Shown piece by piece: positions 409-5,989 of a DNA stretch of 16,304 bases. This DNA is from a virus. Every line of letters begins with the position of its first letter. The first letter of the stretch is position 1. A model generated the notes under the pieces. The model ran no database searches. It was not told the DNA's origin and saw only the letters and a program-made list of their open reading frames with translations. Position numbers and translations under genes: made by a program. Location: UHGV virus genome UHGV-0073938; one strand, given 5' to 3'.

Positions 409-440
409 GGTACTATTACCACAACGGTAACTATTACCAC
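409..440 (+). repeat. tandem direct repeat of ACTATTACCAC in the terS 5' region
   Basis: ACTATTACCAC occurs exactly at 412-422 and 430-440, each preceded by GGT(A), ending 8 nt before the ATG at 448. Confidence 0.5.
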
Positions 441-447
441 GGTGGTT

Positions 448-1044
448 ATGATGCCTGCTGAACCTAAAACCTATAAACGCAAATCAACGCAATTTAAGCC
501 ACTAACAGCAATGCAGGAGGCTTATTGCCAGTCATACATCAAAACGCCTGAAAACCAGACTCAGGCAGCGATTAACGCAGGATTCTCCCCAAATACAGCG
601 GCAGTTAAAGCTAGTGTCATGATGCGCGATGAACGCATTCAAAAACGGATTGCCGAGTTGATGGAGGAGCGCAACAAACGAATGCGCGTCAGTGCTGATT
701 ACGTTCTCATGCGCCTGGTGGAGATCGACCAGATGGACGTGATCGACATCCTCAACGACGATGGGAGCCTTAAACCAATCCGTGAGTGGCCGAAAATCTG
801 GCGCACTACGCTTAGTGGCTTTGATCTGTCATCGACCATCATGAACATGAACGAGGATTCGATAGAGACAATCCTCAAAAAAATTAAATGGCCTGACAAG
901 GTGAAGAACCTTGAGCTGATTGGTAAGCATGTTGATGTCAACGCGTTCAAAGAACGTCTGGATGTTAATGTGAATGTGACAATTGCTGATCGCATAGCAG
1001 CAGCCAGGAAGCGACTCAAAGAACGTCAGGATGGTAATCAGTGA
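448..1044 (+). CDS. terminase small subunit
   Basis: The ORF-track start at 370 is TTG and would read through the 379-404 hairpin; the first in-frame ATG is 448. The N-terminal region (QEAYCQSYIKTPENQTQAAINAGFS...AAVKASVMMRDERIQKRIAEL) looks like the helix-turn-helix DNA-binding region typical of small terminase subunits. Stop overlaps the next start (ATGA at 1041-1044). Confidence 0.75.
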   Translation: MMPAEPKTYKRKSTQFKPLTAMQEAYCQSYIKTPENQTQAAINAGFSPNTAAVKASVMMRDERIQKRIAELMEERNKRMRVSADYVLMRLVEIDQMDVIDILNDDGSLKPIREWPKIWRTTLSGFDLSSTIMNMNEDSIETILKKIKWPDKVKNLELIGKHVDVNAFKERLDVNVNVTIADRIAAARKRLKERQDGNQ

Positions 1045-2510
1045 CAGATACAGCGTTATCTCCTGAAGAGCAGTTGATCGAGGATATTGCAGGGTTCACT
1101 CACGATCCGCTTGGCTATGCCCTCTATGCGTTCCCGTGGGGGGAAGAGGGTACTGAACTGGCACATGCCACCGGTCCACGTCAGTGGCAGGCCGATGCGT
1201 TCCGAGAGATACGTGATCACCTGCAGAATCCAGAGACGCGCTATCAGCCGCTTATGCTGGCACGCGCTTCTGGTCACGGTATTGGTAAATCCGCATTCAT
1301 CTCAATGCTGATCAACTGGGGCATGTCCACTTGCGAGGATTGTAAGGTCGTGGTGACCGCCAACACCGACAACCAGCTACGAACGAAGACCTGGCCGGAA
1401 ATTATCAAGTGGTCGAACCTTGCTATCACGAAAGACTGGTTTACCTGTACCGCTACTGCGATGTACAGCAATGATCCTGGGCACGACAAGCGGTGGCGAG
1501 CTGACGCAATCCCCTGGTCTGAGCACAACACTGAGGCATTCGCCGGACTACACAACGAGCGCAAACGCATCATCGTGGTATTCGATGAAGCGTCGAACAT
1601 TGCGGATCTGGTGTGGGAAGTTGCTGAGGGTGCGCTTACGGACGAAGACACTGAGATTATCTGGGTGGCGTTCGGAAACCCGACGCGTAATACCGGACGT
1701 TTCCGTGAATGTTTCCGCAAGTATAAACACCGCTGGAAAACTGCGCAGATTGACAGTCGGACGGTGGAAGGTACCAACAAACAGCAGTTGCAGAAATGGG
1801 TTGATGACTACGGGGAAGACAGCGACTTCGTTAAAATCCGTGTGCGTGGCATATTCCCTGATGCATCTGAATTGCAGTTTATCCCTACCGGTCTTACTGA
1901 CGAGGCAATGAAACGGGTGGTAACCGCTGCGCAGGTTGCACATGCTCCGGTGATAATCGGCGTTGACCCGGCATACTCCGGCGTTGATGACGCTGTGATA
2001 TACCTGCGGCAGGGGCTACACAGTAAGGTGCTGTGGACTGGCAACAAGACCACTGACGATCTGATAATGGCGAAGCGTATCGCTGACTTTGAAGACCAGT
2101 ACCAGGCTGACGCAGTGTTCATCGACTTCGGTTACGGAACTGGTCTGAAGTCAATCGGTGACGGCTGGGGTCGTACATGGCAACTTGTTCCGTTTGGTGG
2201 TGCGTCTACTGACCCGCAGATGCTCAACAAGCGTGGGGAGATGTTCAACTCATGCAAGACATGGCTGAGGCTGGGCGGCATGCTTGATGACCAGGAAACA
2301 GCGGACGACCTGTCGGCGGCAGAGTACAAAGTTCGAGTGGACGGTAAAATCGTTATCGAACCGAAGGAAGATATCAAGGAGCGGCTTGGGCGTTCTCCTG
2401 GTAAAGGCGATGCGCTACTGCTGACGTTTGCGTTCCCGGTAGCCAAGAAAACTAATGACCCACGGCAGCAGCAGGGCAGGGCTATAACAGACTATGACCC
2501 ATTTGAATGA
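1041..2510 (+). CDS. terminase large subunit
   Basis: 489 aa, translationally coupled to the preceding gene. Walker A-like P-loop (ARASGHGIGKS) near the N-terminus, followed by acidic motifs consistent with ATPase and nuclease domains. Confidence 0.85.
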   Translation: MTDTALSPEEQLIEDIAGFTHDPLGYALYAFPWGEEGTELAHATGPRQWQADAFREIRDHLQNPETRYQPLMLARASGHGIGKSAFISMLINWGMSTCEDCKVVVTANTDNQLRTKTWPEIIKWSNLAITKDWFTCTATAMYSNDPGHDKRWRADAIPWSEHNTEAFAGLHNERKRIIVVFDEASNIADLVWEVAEGALTDEDTEIIWVAFGNPTRNTGRFRECFRKYKHRWKTAQIDSRTVEGTNKQQLQKWVDDYGEDSDFVKIRVRGIFPDASELQFIPTGLTDEAMKRVVTAAQVAHAPVIIGVDPAYSGVDDAVIYLRQGLHSKVLWTGNKTTDDLIMAKRIADFEDQYQADAVFIDFGYGTGLKSIGDGWGRTWQLVPFGGASTDPQMLNKRGEMFNSCKTWLRLGGMLDDQETADDLSAAEYKVRVDGKIVIEPKEDIKERLGRSPGKGDALLLTFAFPVAKKTNDPRQQQGRAITDYDPFE

Positions 2511-2513
2511 TTT

Positions 2514-3362
2514 TTACTTTTGTGTTTTTGATTTTCTTTGATAGGTGGAATTTAAATCACCATTTATATTTACTAGAGGATTATTCAATAATGTACTGAT
2601 TTCTGGATTGTTAATTCCAGTAACGCCAAGTTTCTTTACGGACTCATTAAAGTCTTGTAATGATTTTAGACCTACAAGCCCATTAGCAATTGTATTATTT
2701 GTTGCCAAAGGAATGTTTTTCTTATAGGACTCATATTCGTTTTTTAAATTTTTGTGAGTTTTTTCTAGATTTTCTAGTTTAGATGTTGTTTCATCAATAA
2801 CCTTAGATAATTCTAAAATACGAGCTTGTGCTGCGCGCAGTTCTGTCTCCCTCTCTTTCAATTCAGATGTGAGTTGTCCCATTCTGTCTTTTGAAAGAAT
2901 TATTTCCTCTTTCATGTCTTGAATGTTTTTTTCAGCGCCTGTTTTTACTTTTTCGTAAGTAATGTCTTTTTTAGCCAGCAATCTCTGTAGCCGTGTTTCA
3001 CGTTGTATTTTTCTTGCCTTCCGGTGGTTTTCGATTGAGTCATTATTATCAAGAGGCTTTGCTTGCCATACGTTAATGATATTGTTTACCCATGGTAATA
3101 GGCAGCAGATAGTAATTACAGATAAGCATGGATAAAACATAACAGTTTTCCATGTGCTGTTATCTGAGATGTATGAAATTTTATCTATTATATTTGATTT
3201 GCTAAAAAATAGATAAAGAAGTGATTTCCAGTTGAAGGCGCACCAGGACATAACAAAAGCACCAAGCACAGGGTTTTTAGCTCGATGCACGGCAGTATTG
3301 GCAGTAGATGAAAACAGCTCTTTGAACGATTCGAACATACTAATTACCTTAAAGTTTTTCAT
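2514..3362 (-). CDS. hypothetical membrane-anchored coiled-coil protein (cargo gene; candidate exclusion/defence effector)
   Basis: Minus-strand ORF in a low-GC (about 30%) segment, versus about 50% in flanking phage genes. The track start at 3434 is TTG and overlaps a terminator. ATG at 3362 has AAGG 7 nt upstream; ATG at 3338 is an alternative start. Two hydrophobic segments (VLGAFVMSWCAFNWKSLLYLFF; VMFYPCLSVITICCLLPWV) precede about 100 aa of charged heptad-like sequence (KERETELRAAQARILELSKVIDETTSKLENLEK). Confidence 0.6.
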   Translation of the reverse strand: MKNFKVISMFESFKELFSSTANTAVHRAKNPVLGAFVMSWCAFNWKSLLYLFFSKSNIIDKISYISDNSTWKTVMFYPCLSVITICCLLPWVNNIINVWQAKPLDNNDSIENHRKARKIQRETRLQRLLAKKDITYEKVKTGAEKNIQDMKEEIILSKDRMGQLTSELKERETELRAAQARILELSKVIDETTSKLENLEKTHKNLKNEYESYKKNIPLATNNTIANGLVGLKSLQDFNESVKKLGVTGINNPEISTLLNNPLVNINGDLNSTYQRKSKTQK

Positions 3363-3363
3363 G

Positions 3364-3392
3364 ATTATACCTTTAAGGTAATTTGTGGTCAT
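3364..3392 (-). promoter_or_regulatory. possible sigma70-type promoter for the cargo gene
   Basis: Minus strand reads ATGACC (3392-3387), a 17 nt spacer, then TATAAT (3369-3364). A start here would favour the ATG at 3338, which has AAGG 8 nt upstream. Sequence-only guess. Confidence 0.3.
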
Positions 3393-3397
3393 CAGGC

Positions 3398-3421
3398 AAA
3401 AAATGCCCGGACGAACCGGGC
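3398..3421 (-). terminator. intrinsic terminator (minus strand)
   Basis: Minus strand reads GCCCGG-TTCGT-CCGGGC followed by ATTTTTT (hairpin 3405-3421, T-run 3398-3403). Confidence 0.5.
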
Positions 3422-3499
3422 GAACTGGAAGCAATGAGTTATGCCTTCCGTGGCTGTACTGGTTTACAGCATGAAGTCATCGCAATGGCGTCCTGCTGT

Positions 3500-3541
3500 A
3501 AAAAGGGCGGTGATAGTCCTTCAAGGGAAACCATCACCGCC
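3500..3541 (-). terminator. terminator-like hairpin downstream of the tRNA (minus strand)
   Basis: 9 bp stem (3506-3514 with 3533-3541) and an 18 nt loop, followed on the minus strand by CTTTTT (3500-3505). The loop is large for a typical terminator. Confidence 0.35.
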
Positions 3542-3584
3542 AAGCACCTGGAACTTCTGGCATCACGGTCCTTAGGCGTGATTC

Positions 3585-3661
3585 TGGCGTGGCATGCAGT
3601 ATTCGAACCTGCGACCAACCGCTTAGAAGGCGGTTGCTCTGTCCAACTGAGCTAATGCCAC
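3585..3661 (-). tRNA. tRNA-Arg (anticodon UCU)
   Basis: Minus strand folds as a cloverleaf by hand: acceptor GTGGCAT/ATGCCAC (7 bp), D-stem GCTC/GAGC, anticodon stem ACCGC/GCGGT with loop CTTCTAA (anticodon TCT), T-loop TTCGAAT, discriminator G and encoded CCA. The fifth T-stem pair is a G-A mismatch. Confidence 0.85.
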
Positions 3662-3960
3662 AACGCTGAGAGCACTTAGCCTGTTAAGGCGCCACACTTT
3701 GTCGCGGCTCCATAAATGCTCTCATCGTTGTACCCTCGTCTCTTCCGAGGCGTCACACCGAATCGCCGGGATGGTGAATCCCCGTGCGCGGAATAAAACC
3801 GCTCGACTTGCACATTCCGGCTACCTGGTTCGTTTGCCCGAGCAAGGGAGGGTGCCCCTTAAACGTATCCAGACCGCTATCGGCGCATGTGCCATACACC
3901 GTACTGCTCAAAATAAAAGCTCACCCCACCTGTTCAATTTAACGACAAGCCAGTCAGGTT
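3662..3960. other. GC-rich ORF-less segment; possible structured RNA, tRNA leader or recombination scar
   Basis: About 300 nt with no convincing ORF on either strand. The only track ORF (3699-3962) lacks an RBS and reads like noncoding translation. Several short GC-rich inverted repeats. No second cloverleaf found by hand. Confidence 0.3.
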
Positions 3961-4075
3961 AATAACCGGAATGAACTCTTTGCTTACCTGAAAGGTAATA
4001 ATTAGTGCGTTAAATGTCAAGTATCTACGATAAATAAATCATATGTGGTTAAATTGGTAATAATTTAATTGCGTA

Positions 4076-4087
4076 CGGAGTCATTGA
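4076..4087 (+). repeat. 12 nt direct repeat CGGAGTCATTGA, copy 1 (start context of the small ORF)
   Basis: Exact match to 4297-4308; both copies end 1 nt before an ATG. Confidence 0.4.
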
Positions 4088-4088
4088 T

Positions 4089-4295
4089 ATGTGCATGGGT
4101 AGCTCACCATCAGTGCCTGCAACACCAGAAGTTCAGGCAGCACCACAGGAGCAGGATGCCGCCGTTGTTGATGCCCGCGACGAAGAAACTCGTCGCCGTC
4201 GCGCTGCTGCTGGTCGTAGTTCTACGCTGCTTACCGGTTCTCAGGGCGACACATCAACCGCTAATACCAGCGGTAAAACGCTGCTTGGTCAGTAA
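4089..4295 (+). CDS. hypothetical small protein, 68 aa, predicted disordered and charged
   Basis: ATG at 4089 with GGAG 8 nt upstream. Codon usage resembles the neighbouring phage genes. Start context CGGAGTCATTGA is repeated at the portal start. Confidence 0.45.
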   Translation: MCMGSSPSVPATPEVQAAPQEQDAAVVDARDEETRRRRAAAGRSSTLLTGSQGDTSTANTSGKTLLGQ

Positions 4296-4296
4296 C

Positions 4297-4308
4297 CGGA
4301 GTCATTGA
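4297..4308 (+). repeat. 12 nt direct repeat CGGAGTCATTGA, copy 2 (start context of the portal gene)
   Basis: Exact match to 4076-4087. Confidence 0.4.
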
Positions 4309-4309
4309 A

Positions 4310-5989
4310 ATGGCGGAAACAACTAAAGAGCGATTGAACAAACAGTTCGCACAACTTGAAAGCGAGCGTCAGTCGTTCGAGCCGCACTGGCGCGAGTTGA
4401 GTGATTACATCAACCCGCGTGGTTCCCGCTTTCTGACTTCTGAGGTCAACCGTAACGATCGACGCAATACACGTATTATTGATTCGACCGGGACTATGGC
4501 GGCGCGCACTCTCGCCAGCGGCATGATGTCAGGCATCACAAGCCCCGCGCGTCCGTGGTTTCGCCTGGCTACGCCAGATCCTGAAATGATGGATTATGGC
4601 CCTGTTAAGTTGTGGCTTGAGGCGGTGCAGAACCGCATGAACGATATGTTCAATAATTCGAATCTCTATCAGTCGCTGCCGCAGTTATACGGAAGCCTCG
4701 GCACATACAGCACTGGTGCAATGGCAGTGCTGGAGGATGACGAGGACATCATTCGCACAATGCCATTCCCGATAGGCAGTTACTACCTGGCTAACTCACC
4801 TCGTGGCAGTGTGGACACCTGTTTTCGCAAGTTCTCTATGACTGTTCGTCAGCTTGTTCAGGAGTTCGGGCTAAATAACGTCAGCGAATCCGTAAAAAGC
4901 ATGTGGGAAAGCGGAACCTACGAGAAGTGGATTGAAGTGATGCATTCGGTTTACCCGAACATTGACCGCGATACATCGAAGCTGGATAGCAAGAACAAGC
5001 CATTCAAATCGGTTTATTACGAGGTTGGTGGCGATAACGACAAGTTGTTGCGTGAGTCCGGATTCGATGAGTTTCCAATTATGGCTCCGCGCTGGGAAGT
5101 TAACGGCGAAGATGTTTATGGATCATCATGCCCGGGTATGCTGGCGCTTGGACCTGTTAAGGCATTGCAGCTTCTCCAGAAGCGCAAGTCGCAGTTGATT
5201 GATAAAGCCACCAATCCGCCGATGGTTGCTCCGACTTCCCTCAAGAATCAGCGTGCCTCCCTTCTTCCTGGCGACATCACGTATATCGATCAGATTACTG
5301 GTCAGGATGGTTTCAGGCCTGCTTATCTGGTTAACCCCAGTACAGCAGATTTGGTGGCAGACATTCAGGACACCCGTCAAATCATTAACAGCGCCTACTT
5401 TGTCGATCTGTTCATGATGTTGCAGAACATCAATACCCGCTCGATGCCTGTTGAAGCGGTGATCGAAATGAAAGAAGAAAAACTTCTGATGTTGGGGCCG
5501 GTTCTGGAGCGTCTGAACGACGAATGTCTTAATCCTCTCATTGATCGCGCTTTCTCGATGATGGTGCGTAAAAACATGCTGCCGCCACCGCCTGACGCGA
5601 TGGAAGGTATGCCCCTGAAGGTCGAATACATTTCCGTCATGGCTCAGGCGCAGAAGTCTATCGGCCTGTCCAGTCTGGCGTCTACGGTCAACTTCATTGG
5701 TCAACTTGCGCAAGCGAAACCAGAAGCTCTCGACAAACTCAACGTTGATCAGGCGATCGATGCATTCGCTGATATGTCCGGAGTGTCTCCAACCGTCATT
5801 GTTCCGCAGGAACAGGTTGAGCAGGCTCGCCAGCAACGGGCACAGCAACAACAGCAGCAACAAATGATGGCGATGGGGATGGCGGCGGCACAGGGTGCCA
5901 AGACGCTAAGCGAAGCTAAAACTTCGGATCCGAGTGTTTTGTCAGCTATGGCGAATGCAGTTAGTGGTCAGGGTGGGCAATCACAATGA
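4310..5989 (+). CDS. portal protein
   Basis: 559 aa ORF as the first large gene after the terminase pair and before scaffold-like and capsid genes. GGAG-type RBS. Gln-rich C-terminal tail. Stop overlaps the next start (ATGA at 5986-5989). Call is by size and position; no diagnostic motif verified. Confidence 0.75.
   Translation: MAETTKERLNKQFAQLESERQSFEPHWRELSDYINPRGSRFLTSEVNRNDRRNTRIIDSTGTMAARTLASGMMSGITSPARPWFRLATPDPEMMDYGPVKLWLEAVQNRMNDMFNNSNLYQSLPQLYGSLGTYSTGAMAVLEDDEDIIRTMPFPIGSYYLANSPRGSVDTCFRKFSMTVRQLVQEFGLNNVSESVKSMWESGTYEKWIEVMHSVYPNIDRDTSKLDSKNKPFKSVYYEVGGDNDKLLRESGFDEFPIMAPRWEVNGEDVYGSSCPGMLALGPVKALQLLQKRKSQLIDKATNPPMVAPTSLKNQRASLLPGDITYIDQITGQDGFRPAYLVNPSTADLVADIQDTRQIINSAYFVDLFMMLQNINTRSMPVEAVIEMKEEKLLMLGPVLERLNDECLNPLIDRAFSMMVRKNMLPPPPDAMEGMPLKVEYISVMAQAQKSIGLSSLASTVNFIGQLAQAKPEALDKLNVDQAIDAFADMSGVSPTVIVPQEQVEQARQQRAQQQQQQQMMAMGMAAAQGAKTLSEAKTSDPSVLSAMANAVSGQGGQSQ

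Follow-up and report, generated by a model that had tools for sequence, protein, structure and literature searches.

A variable accessory-gene slot beside a conserved structured RNA-tRNA unit between the terminase and portal genes of an epsilon15-like phage

Introduction

What lies between the large terminase gene (terL) and the portal gene of an epsilon15-like phage, and do the parts of that gap form one unit or several? The question is raised by a stretch of 16,304 nucleotides (nt) of viral DNA (UHGV virus genome UHGV-0073938, called the window at its full length), in which terL ends at 2510 and the portal gene starts at 4310, leaving the gap of about 1.8 kilobases that an earlier reading of the letters (the sequence-only reading) had pointed out. 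The window belongs to an epsilon15/phiV10-like (Uetakevirus-type) podophage or prophage of Escherichia coli; TL-2011b matches it at 98% identity across 93% of its length, and its morphogenesis genes also match phiV10, ZX5, HEMP4 and others. The gap is here read, with a probability of roughly 0.7, as a composite of a moron-bearing recombinational slot (2441-3397) and a conserved block (3398-4308) that holds an RNA-tRNA unit, a promoter with its operator, terminators, and a homologue of epsilon15 gp3. The features on which this reading turns are the following.

2441-3397, no strand assigned: hypervariable accessory-gene slot, the true insert (G+C content 0.347 versus 0.51; BLAST breakpoints 2440 and 3398)
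2514-3338, minus strand: cargo gene, 274 amino acids (aa), PHROG 4780 (phrog_4780, E 1e-121; start set by alignment of homologues)
3364-3392, minus strand: cargo promoter, sigma-70-like, with -35 ATGACC (3392-3387), a 17-nt spacer and -10 TATAAT (3369-3364), matching 10 of 12 consensus positions
3398-3421, minus strand: terminator t2, stem 3421-3405 (six G-C pairs) and T run 3404-3398
3496-3541, minus strand: terminator t1, stem of 14 base pairs (bp) at 3541-3506 and a T run
3585-3661, minus strand: tRNA-Arg, anticodon UCU (ARAGORN tct; Rfam RF00005, 62.9 bits against a threshold of 29)
3662-3905, minus strand: structured RNA of about 245 nt, core 3901-3730, its 3' end directly abutting tRNA-Arg
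3984-3998, minus strand: operator TTACCTGAAAGGTAA, covering the -10 of the leftward promoter
3984-4018, minus strand: putative leftward promoter, read from sequence, with a perfect -35 TTGACA (4018-4013), a 17-nt spacer and a weak -10 TACCTT (3995-3990)

Two unlike halves

In the sequence-only reading, 2511-4308 was a single acquired insert of low G+C (GC) content. Sliding windows bear out a compositional break, with GC contents of 0.31-0.39 in 300-nt windows from 2401 to 3450 and of about 0.5 on either side, but the break is confined to the left half of the gap, and the figure of about 30% given for it is nearer 35%. Segment 2441-3397 has a GC content of 0.347, and the GC content at third codon positions (GC3) of the cargo gene is 0.30, against about 0.5. 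The block 3398-4308 stands at 0.514, with the left flank at 0.513 and the right flank at 0.497; within it, the RNA (0.57) neighbours a promoter region at 0.34.

BLAST comparison with close relatives places the borders exactly. Similarity to phiV10 and phiv142-3 ends at 2440, that to TL-2011b at 2500 (86% identity), and similarity to all three restarts precisely at 3398, at 98.6-99.1% identity, and runs on into the portal gene. The variable segment is 2441-3397, beginning inside terL rather than at 2511, taking in the final 70 nt or so of that gene, and ending on the right at the T run of t2. The block that follows is 98-99% identical in phiV10-type E. coli phages, is recognisable in relatives from Salmonella, Klebsiella and Enterobacter, and is kept in all relatives whether the slot has other cargo or is empty. 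Terminator t2 forms the first bases of the conserved block in all phiV10-type phages, where the block starts at 3398, and recurs in many related loci. Since the block is conserved across the phage group, the tRNA and both terminators are part of a conserved phage unit and not of the cargo.

These borders bear on the view that the whole of 2511-4308 is one acquired module, expressed from the prophage for exclusion or anti-phage purposes, tRNA and terminators included. Such a view accommodates a cargo gene of low GC content on the opposite strand, in a variable slot and behind its own promoter. It is nonetheless improbable, as the right half is conserved phage backbone, the anti-phage search described below returned coiled-coil noise, and an operator palindrome lies over the cargo -10. 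In addition, the two minus-strand terminators do exist (3541-3506 and 3421-3405), but both are upstream of the cargo gene and do not belong to its unit; they are predicted to end the RNA/tRNA transcript, not that of the cargo gene.

A swappable position for one gene

The junction between terL and the tRNA is present in 521 of 5,426 complete E. coli genomes, and the present cargo allele occupies it in 18 of them. At least five alternative contents are found, counting the empty state, and every cargo in this position lies on the minus strand. The protein superfamily of the present cargo is represented by other alleles (phrog_13369, phrog_4780), and there are also a gene of the Gp49/Sf6-gp66 family (PF13876), as in phiV10 and epsilon15, a Tad2-like gene (PF11195), for instance in E. 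coli PD23 (locus coordinates 1508-1804), and, in TL-2011b, a phrog_3163 gene. Empty slots have 320 bp between the terL stop and the tRNA. The junction comparison that the sequence-only reading had called for thus shows cargo that differs or is missing, and a conserved core gene was not seen at the junction among the relatives compared; the idea of a horizontally exchanged accessory position holds for the slot itself, given the foreign composition of the cargo, its predicted promoter, and relatives with other cargo or none.

The slot is an ordinary swappable one-gene cargo position of the textbook kind. Its occupant is a moron by its variability of position, its own promoter (in silico) and its foreign composition, and it lacks its own terminator. 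With 521 E. coli prophages and five or more alternative cargos, among them a Tad2-like one, the slot is a well-sampled hotspot and a handy place to mine for conflict genes. At the left junction, the last 23 or so codons of terL are swapped along with the cargo, such that the terminase is 489 aa here versus 491 aa in phiV10 and TL-2011b.

A structured RNA joined to tRNA-Arg

The features that the sequence-only reading had listed are real, including the minus-strand tRNA-Arg(UCU), on which ARAGORN and Rfam agree (3585-3661), but the structured RNA at 3662-3905 had been overlooked. The GC-rich stretch 3658-3902, which is free of open reading frames (ORFs), matches unannotated DNA of several unrelated phages at 76-82% identity: the lambdoid phages mEp460, cdtI, Stx2c and Stx2a, the group of P1, P7, D6, SJ46 and RCS47, the Klebsiella phage SopranoGao, and Stenotrophomonas phages. 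Copies of the RNA share three near-invariant blocks, with spacers of variable length and one invariant stretch of 21 nt. The pairing was derived on an alignment of 41 sequences (A3), no two of which share 90% identity, and comprises the following elements (window coordinates on the minus strand, then positions in the RNA).

H1, 3901-3894 with 3888-3881 (RNA 5-12 with 18-25): local hairpin
PK1, 3892-3889 with 3813-3810 (RNA 14-17 with 93-96): pseudoknot of the H1 loop with an invariant GUGC
H2, 3877-3870 with 3827-3820 (RNA 29-36 with 79-86): helix with a variable extension
H3, RNA about 104-118: variable hairpin
H4, 3782-3778 with 3772-3768 (RNA 124-128 with 134-138): hairpin with loop UCACC
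PK2, 3776-3773 with 3759-3756 (RNA 130-133 with 147-150): pseudoknot of the H4 loop with a downstream GGUG
H5, 3750-3746 with 3738-3734 (RNA 156-160 with 168-172): hairpin with loop GAAGAGA
P6, 3729-3662, minus strand: long 3' hairpin, ending at the first base of the tRNA 5' end

The pairing is well supported as that of a minus-strand, non-coding RNA. In A3, 96.3% of cells are paired and 12 of the 33 pairs have changed at both partners. Covariation scores 0.221, versus 0.104 in shuffles (none of 500 reaching the observed value) and at most 0.063 when the partners are slid. Covarying pairs include 9-21 (AU in 21 copies, GC in 19, GU in one), 125-137 (CG in 33, GC in six, GU and UA in one each) and, within PK2, 130-150 (CG in 38, AU in three). 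For P6, an ungapped test captures 57 of 116 copies and finds little variation.

The alternative that 3662-3905 is a protein-coding stretch or a DNA-level site for recombination or binding, rather than an RNA gene, could point to hypothetical ORFs annotated over or beside it in mEp460 and phiV10. However, no frame is open in more than 13 of the 41 copies, spacer lengths are not multiples of three, and compensatory changes occur at 12 pairs, while the abundant G-U pairs are possible only in the minus-strand sense of the window and neighbouring tRNAs lie on the strand of the RNA in 46 of 46 cases. A coding role was rejected on the missing conserved frame and the spacers that ignore the triplet rule, and the alternative as a whole is hardly credible. 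The annotated ORFs in question, namely PhiV10p04 (locus coordinates 2672-2923), which like the window ORF at 3383-3655 (plus strand) is antisense to the terminators and tRNA, and mEp460 gp37 (locus coordinates 2934-3302), which is antisense over the structured RNA, are hypothetical, and neither PhiV10p04 nor gp37 is probably a gene.

The 5' part of the RNA can be drawn in a second way. RNAalifold prefers the long-range pairings 14-19 with 101-106, 23-25 with 97-99 and 6-8 with 109-111, which are likewise fully compatible with all sequences. Comparison of RNA 5-25 with 93-111 (3901-3881 and 3813-3795) shows covariation in the H1 hairpin and wobble changes only in the long-range helix. The 5' part may adopt two exclusive conformations and act as a conformational switch.

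In Rfam, the RNA drew nothing at E of 1 or below over 2300-4500, and chance-level noise only at E of 10 or below over 3640-4000; literal strings of its sequence led, in the literature, to unrelated papers only.

Distribution and contexts of the RNA

The covariance model R1 finds a single copy of the RNA per phage, for instance one in the window (3720-3905, minus strand, 146 bits) and one in phiV10. Among 5,426 complete E. coli genomes, 1,840 (about one third, O104:H4 included) contain the RNA, at 1,920 chromosomal and 554 plasmid places, and an annotated feature is missing under the match in 39 of 40 sampled E. coli records. Beyond these genomes, an 18-nt invariant word occurs at more than 120 IMG/VR loci and in 24 species-representative genomes, nearly all of Enterobacterales. 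Copies on two contigs labelled as Oscillospiraceae and Bacillota metagenome-assembled genomes, one scoring 170 bits, are probably on mis-binned enterobacterial phage contigs. In the case of epsilon15 (2612-2725), the tRNA-Arg and most of the RNA are lost, leaving a 39-bit remnant, and the annotated 'RNaseIII' site of that phage overlaps the 5' end of the remnant and the leader upstream.

Three arrangements recur. Epsilon15-like phages have, one after the other, an operator-controlled promoter, the RNA, tRNA-Arg, t1, t2 and the cargo slot. In lambdoid prophages, a cI-type repressor gene (helix-turn-helix plus S24 peptidase) lies directly upstream of the RNA on the same strand in 67 of 155 RNA loci; in mEp460 and the O104:H4 prophage, the cI stop is followed by a terminator, two operator palindromes of the OR type, the RNA, P6, two terminator-like hairpins, and early-left genes of the yfdQ/yfdR type. 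The RNA begins about 35 nt after the inferred start of pL in lambdoid prophages that lack N. In P1, it lies between trnI (tRNA-Ile) and ban, inside the C1-controlled ban operon. In every context, the transcript that contains the RNA would be an early one under repressor control. Downstream of the RNA, Tad2-like (Thoeris anti-defence 2-like) genes are seen in epsilon15-like prophages and in some P1-like elements.

Promoters and a dispersed operator

The palindrome TTACC-N5-GGTAA occurs at four sites in the window (416-430, 434-448, 3367-3381 and 3984-3998), versus 0.29 expected, a number reached in none of 200 shuffles. Two of these sites overlap the -10 elements of the minus-strand promoters, that at 3984-3998 lying over the leftward promoter and that at 3367-3381 over the cargo promoter. 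The remaining two form a pair near the small terminase gene (terS):

416-448, plus strand: two operator copies, shortly after TTG 370, the first codon of the terS ORF

In phiV10, 14 sites are present versus 0.54 expected. Two of them lie between the repressor gene p40 and a divergent cro-like gene, two more directly downstream of p40, and single or paired sites precede most transcription units. Homologous sites in the epsilon15 record are labelled as repressor sites. From the excess of sites, their placement around p40 and the epsilon15 labels, the palindrome is concluded to be a dispersed operator of the phage repressor. The layout, in a podovirus, is of the multi-operator kind seen with P1 C1.

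Diverged relatives retain the -35, the spacing and the operator of the leftward promoter. The cargo promoter is kept upstream of homologues in all five contexts, its own and four others, which span epsilon15-like, lambdoid nin and chromosomal settings; the palindrome by its -10 is kept in most other contexts and lost in the plain chromosomal one. An operator over both -10 elements suggests repression in lysogens and early expression upon infection or induction. Expression of the cargo from a repressed prophage, as the sequence-only reading had proposed, is in doubt, given that the operator over the -10 argues against it and does not settle it.

The leftward unit also bears on codon usage. AGA is a rare codon in E. 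coli. Its frequency is 6.2 per 1000 in the phage genes of the window, with a concentration in those for tail and injection, and rises to 14.6 per 1000 in the cargo gene. The tRNA-Arg plausibly supplies AGA decoding for the tail and injection genes and for the cargo gene.

A free RNA or an antiterminator

The operator-controlled leftward promoter would drive a short untranslated unit, in which the pseudoknotted RNA is joined to tRNA-Arg(UCU) and which t1 and t2 would close. A cut by RNase P at the 5' end of the tRNA would release the RNA, and the favoured reading is that of a discrete, early-made regulator that would act in trans or be directed at RNA polymerase. A free, processed RNA is favoured because the RNA is tightly joined to the tRNA, has dedicated terminators and pseudoknots, and includes an invariant stretch of 21 nt.

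Alternatively, the RNA may be a cis-acting processive antiterminator, functionally analogous to put of HK022, which promotes terminator read-through in cis and depends for this on the beta' zinc-binding domain. Such an RNA would modify RNA polymerase so as to pass the terminators that follow; in the window, read-through of t1 and t2 would reach the cargo, as the last gene of an early operon transcribed leftward. This mechanism is favoured by the position of the RNA right after pL in the N-less lambdoid phages, ahead of terminators, where the RNA lies some 35 nt from pL and two terminator-like hairpins precede the first early-left gene. In the window, too, the RNA precedes t1 and t2, and every cargo variant lies on its strand. 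The 3' arm of P6 (3662-3700), AGUGCUCUyNNCGUUGUGG, resembles boxA plus boxC of rrn/nut sites, which may be chance, and the H5 loop GAAGAGA (3738-3750) contains the GAAGA of lambda boxB, again perhaps by chance. Moreover, both HK022 and HK639 show such RNAs at this position (PMC9378689).

Against cis antitermination stands the finding of one copy per phage, with no counterpart after pR, and the cargo has its own conserved promoter. Downstream terminators show no measurable enrichment, being found in 49 of 118 loci in the sense and 39 of 118 in the antisense orientation, in a crude survey whose strict finder missed large-loop terminators that are visible by eye. In phages with an empty slot, read-through would yield only RNA antisense to terL, and in P1 the interval from the RNA to ban showed no terminator. 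A relationship to the put RNA of HK639 was rejected, as R1 gives no match on the putL-like region of that phage; put of HK022 itself was not modelled. The antiterminator is a possible but doubtful account, and the free-RNA reading is placed slightly ahead of it.

Two further candidates were set aside. In 21 of 125 copies, P6 is immediately followed by a hairpin whose loop is GGCUGA and whose stem covaries; these copies include mEp460 (3248-3265 in RNA-sense coordinates) and a second locus, L008 (2760-2777, likewise RNA-sense). An N/nut system is not supported, because this hairpin is found in only those 21 copies and none is present after pR. The Pas small RNAs of prophages were rejected as well, as these adjoin capsid and tail structural genes, or Q/LpxR in the case of PasD.

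Tentatively, the RNA may found a new class of phage regulatory RNA that is mobile, early and pseudoknotted, has two exclusive 5' pairings, and is common to three unrelated lineages of temperate phages, namely epsilon15-like podoviruses, lambdoid siphoviruses and P1-like phage-plasmids; its members could be protein-independent antiterminators unrelated to put or could act in trans on a conserved host machine. The structured RNA is the more valuable result of this analysis, being large and strongly covarying, having no Rfam entry and going almost always unannotated in the E. coli records of RefSeq. Control of elongation, if that is its role, would explain how early-left genes are expressed in a large group of lambdoid prophages without N; an action in trans would make it a new phage tool against the host.

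The cargo protein

The cargo ORF (2514-3434) is the sole credible minus-strand gene of the window, as had been claimed. An alignment of 32 homologues places its start at ATG 3338, the ninth codon (M9) of the reading from ATG 3362, as in all homologues, and not at TTG 3434. Its stop codon and that of the convergent terL are 3 nt apart. Beyond the cargo gene no terminator is convincing, the only downstream minus-strand match (2475-2459, in terL, with 5 pairs) having a poor T tail. The gene moves as one unit: homologues fill the same slot in further epsilon15-like prophages of E. coli, occur within the nin region of Klebsiella lambdoid phages, there on the opposite strand, and, in Cronobacter, are represented by a lone gene between lacI and a dehydrogenase gene with no phage around.

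In the same alignment, the N-terminal 165 aa or so are strongly conserved, and the remainder is a coiled coil that varies freely in sequence and length, which suggests an arms race at the C-terminus. By hydropathy, the conserved part has one clear hydrophobic segment (about residues 64-90), a weaker one (23-45) and a basic conserved stretch. This conserved part would anchor the protein in the inner membrane, and the positive-inside rule suggests that the coiled coil probably lies in the cytoplasm. Searches returned no Pfam domain and, in NCBIfam, only coiled-coil noise; PADLOC-DB gave only weak coiled-coil matches (E of 1e-4 or above) to LmuB, DruC and JetC and no anti-phage assignment, and no PDB sequence scored below E 0.06 in a profile search. 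The AlphaFold2 model is all-helical and of low confidence (predicted local distance difference test, pLDDT, 65; predicted template modelling score, pTM, 0.25), too poor for a fold search, and none was therefore made. An exhaustive profile search collected 316 family clusters at E of 1e-10 or below, and a Pfam domain was found in none of the eight longest family members scanned. A protein family of this size without any annotation could be studied through the slot.

The best guess is that the cargo is a membrane-acting protein of phage-versus-phage or phage-versus-host conflict, of the exclusion or abortive-infection type. A different possibility, judged questionable, is an early gene for counter-defence or for takeover of the host, instead of one for defence or exclusion from which the lysogen would profit. 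The same slot carries a Tad2-like gene in other prophages, such genes also follow the RNA in some P1-like elements, and, with an operator over its -10, the cargo gene may be expressed only in the absence of repressor. Yet the protein resembles none of the known anti-defence proteins, the combination of a membrane anchor and a hypervariable coiled coil fits exclusion and abortive-infection proteins at least as well, and the Cronobacter homologue stands alone in the chromosome.

Points that weigh against the composite reading

Several points weigh against the interpretation given here. Transcription of every part of the locus is predicted from sequence alone, and the -10 of the leftward promoter is weak, such that a consensus promoter scan missed it. 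Operator overlap is no proof of repression, because oac of phiV10, annotated in superinfection immunity and presumably expressed in the lysogen, also has an operator site nearby. With regard to the RNA, the 5' part fits two mutually exclusive pairings, H1 and the long-range helix of RNAalifold; the PK1 pairing is invariant and so draws no support from covariation; and part of the covariation reflects shared descent, the copies being those of related phages. The RNA family is apparently undescribed, as judged by Rfam 15 and a limited literature search. Lastly, the role of the cargo is a guess, since no informative homologue, domain or confident fold is available.

Neighbouring genes

The gene order of the window is a small regulator (63-329), terS (370-1044), terL (1041-2510), the gap, the gp3 homologue, the portal gene, and head and tail genes. 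The genes that frame the gap, and the small gene at its right end, are as follows.

1041-2510, plus strand: large terminase gene terL (ORF; annotated so in TL-2011b, phiV10 and epsilon15)
4089-4295, plus strand: small conserved ORF of 68 aa, homologue of epsilon15 gp3 (phrog_831, E 2e-36; annotated in epsilon15, phiV10 and TL-2011b)
4310-5989, plus strand: portal (head-to-tail connector) gene (PF12236, E 4e-187)

The regulator at 63-329 (88 aa, phrog_536) lies directly upstream of terS and the double operator, and may be a late-gene regulator.

Comparison with known systems

The slot shares with phage morons, such as bor and lom of lambda and the genes at variable accessory positions of P2 (PMC3573123), a single gene of foreign composition with its own promoter at a fixed site between essential genes; close relatives may have such a gene, lack it or carry another in its place, and its orientation is often opposite. 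The slot differs in that the cargo here lacks its own terminator and that a copy of the phage operator overlaps its -10. The paper on the neaT moron treats P2-like slots and has no bearing on the terL-portal junction.

Membrane-bound superinfection-exclusion and abortive-infection proteins include RexB/SieB of lambda, SieA/SieB of P22 and Imm of T4. The cargo product, like these proteins, would be a small, phage-borne, membrane-anchored accessory protein, although it has no sequence or fold similarity to them.

The tRNA has the same AGA decoding as the standard phage tRNA-Arg(UCU), and differs from it in being directly joined to a large structured RNA, probably on the same transcript. Regulatory RNAs that RNase P cuts from a longer early transcript are known in the C4 RNA of P1 and P7 and the CI RNA of P4. 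P1 also carries the present RNA; unlike C4, however, it lies in the ban operon and not in immI, and it has no match to C4 in Rfam. The GOLLD and ROOL RNAs are likewise structured phage RNAs that are often found by tRNA genes. They are several times larger and come mainly from Gram-positive bacteria and their phages, and the present RNA has no Rfam match to them.

The closest parallel in position is with putL and putR of HK022 and the putL-like RNA of HK639, all of which share with the present RNA the arrangement of a structured RNA directly after pL in N-less lambdoid phages, ahead of terminators, with P1 being the exception. Whereas put is about 70 nt long and has two stem-loops (PMC9378689), the RNA described here is 170-245 nt long, with at least five helices and two pseudoknots. 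Unlike put, it is present in one copy per phage, and it is also fused to tRNAs in podoviruses and in P1.

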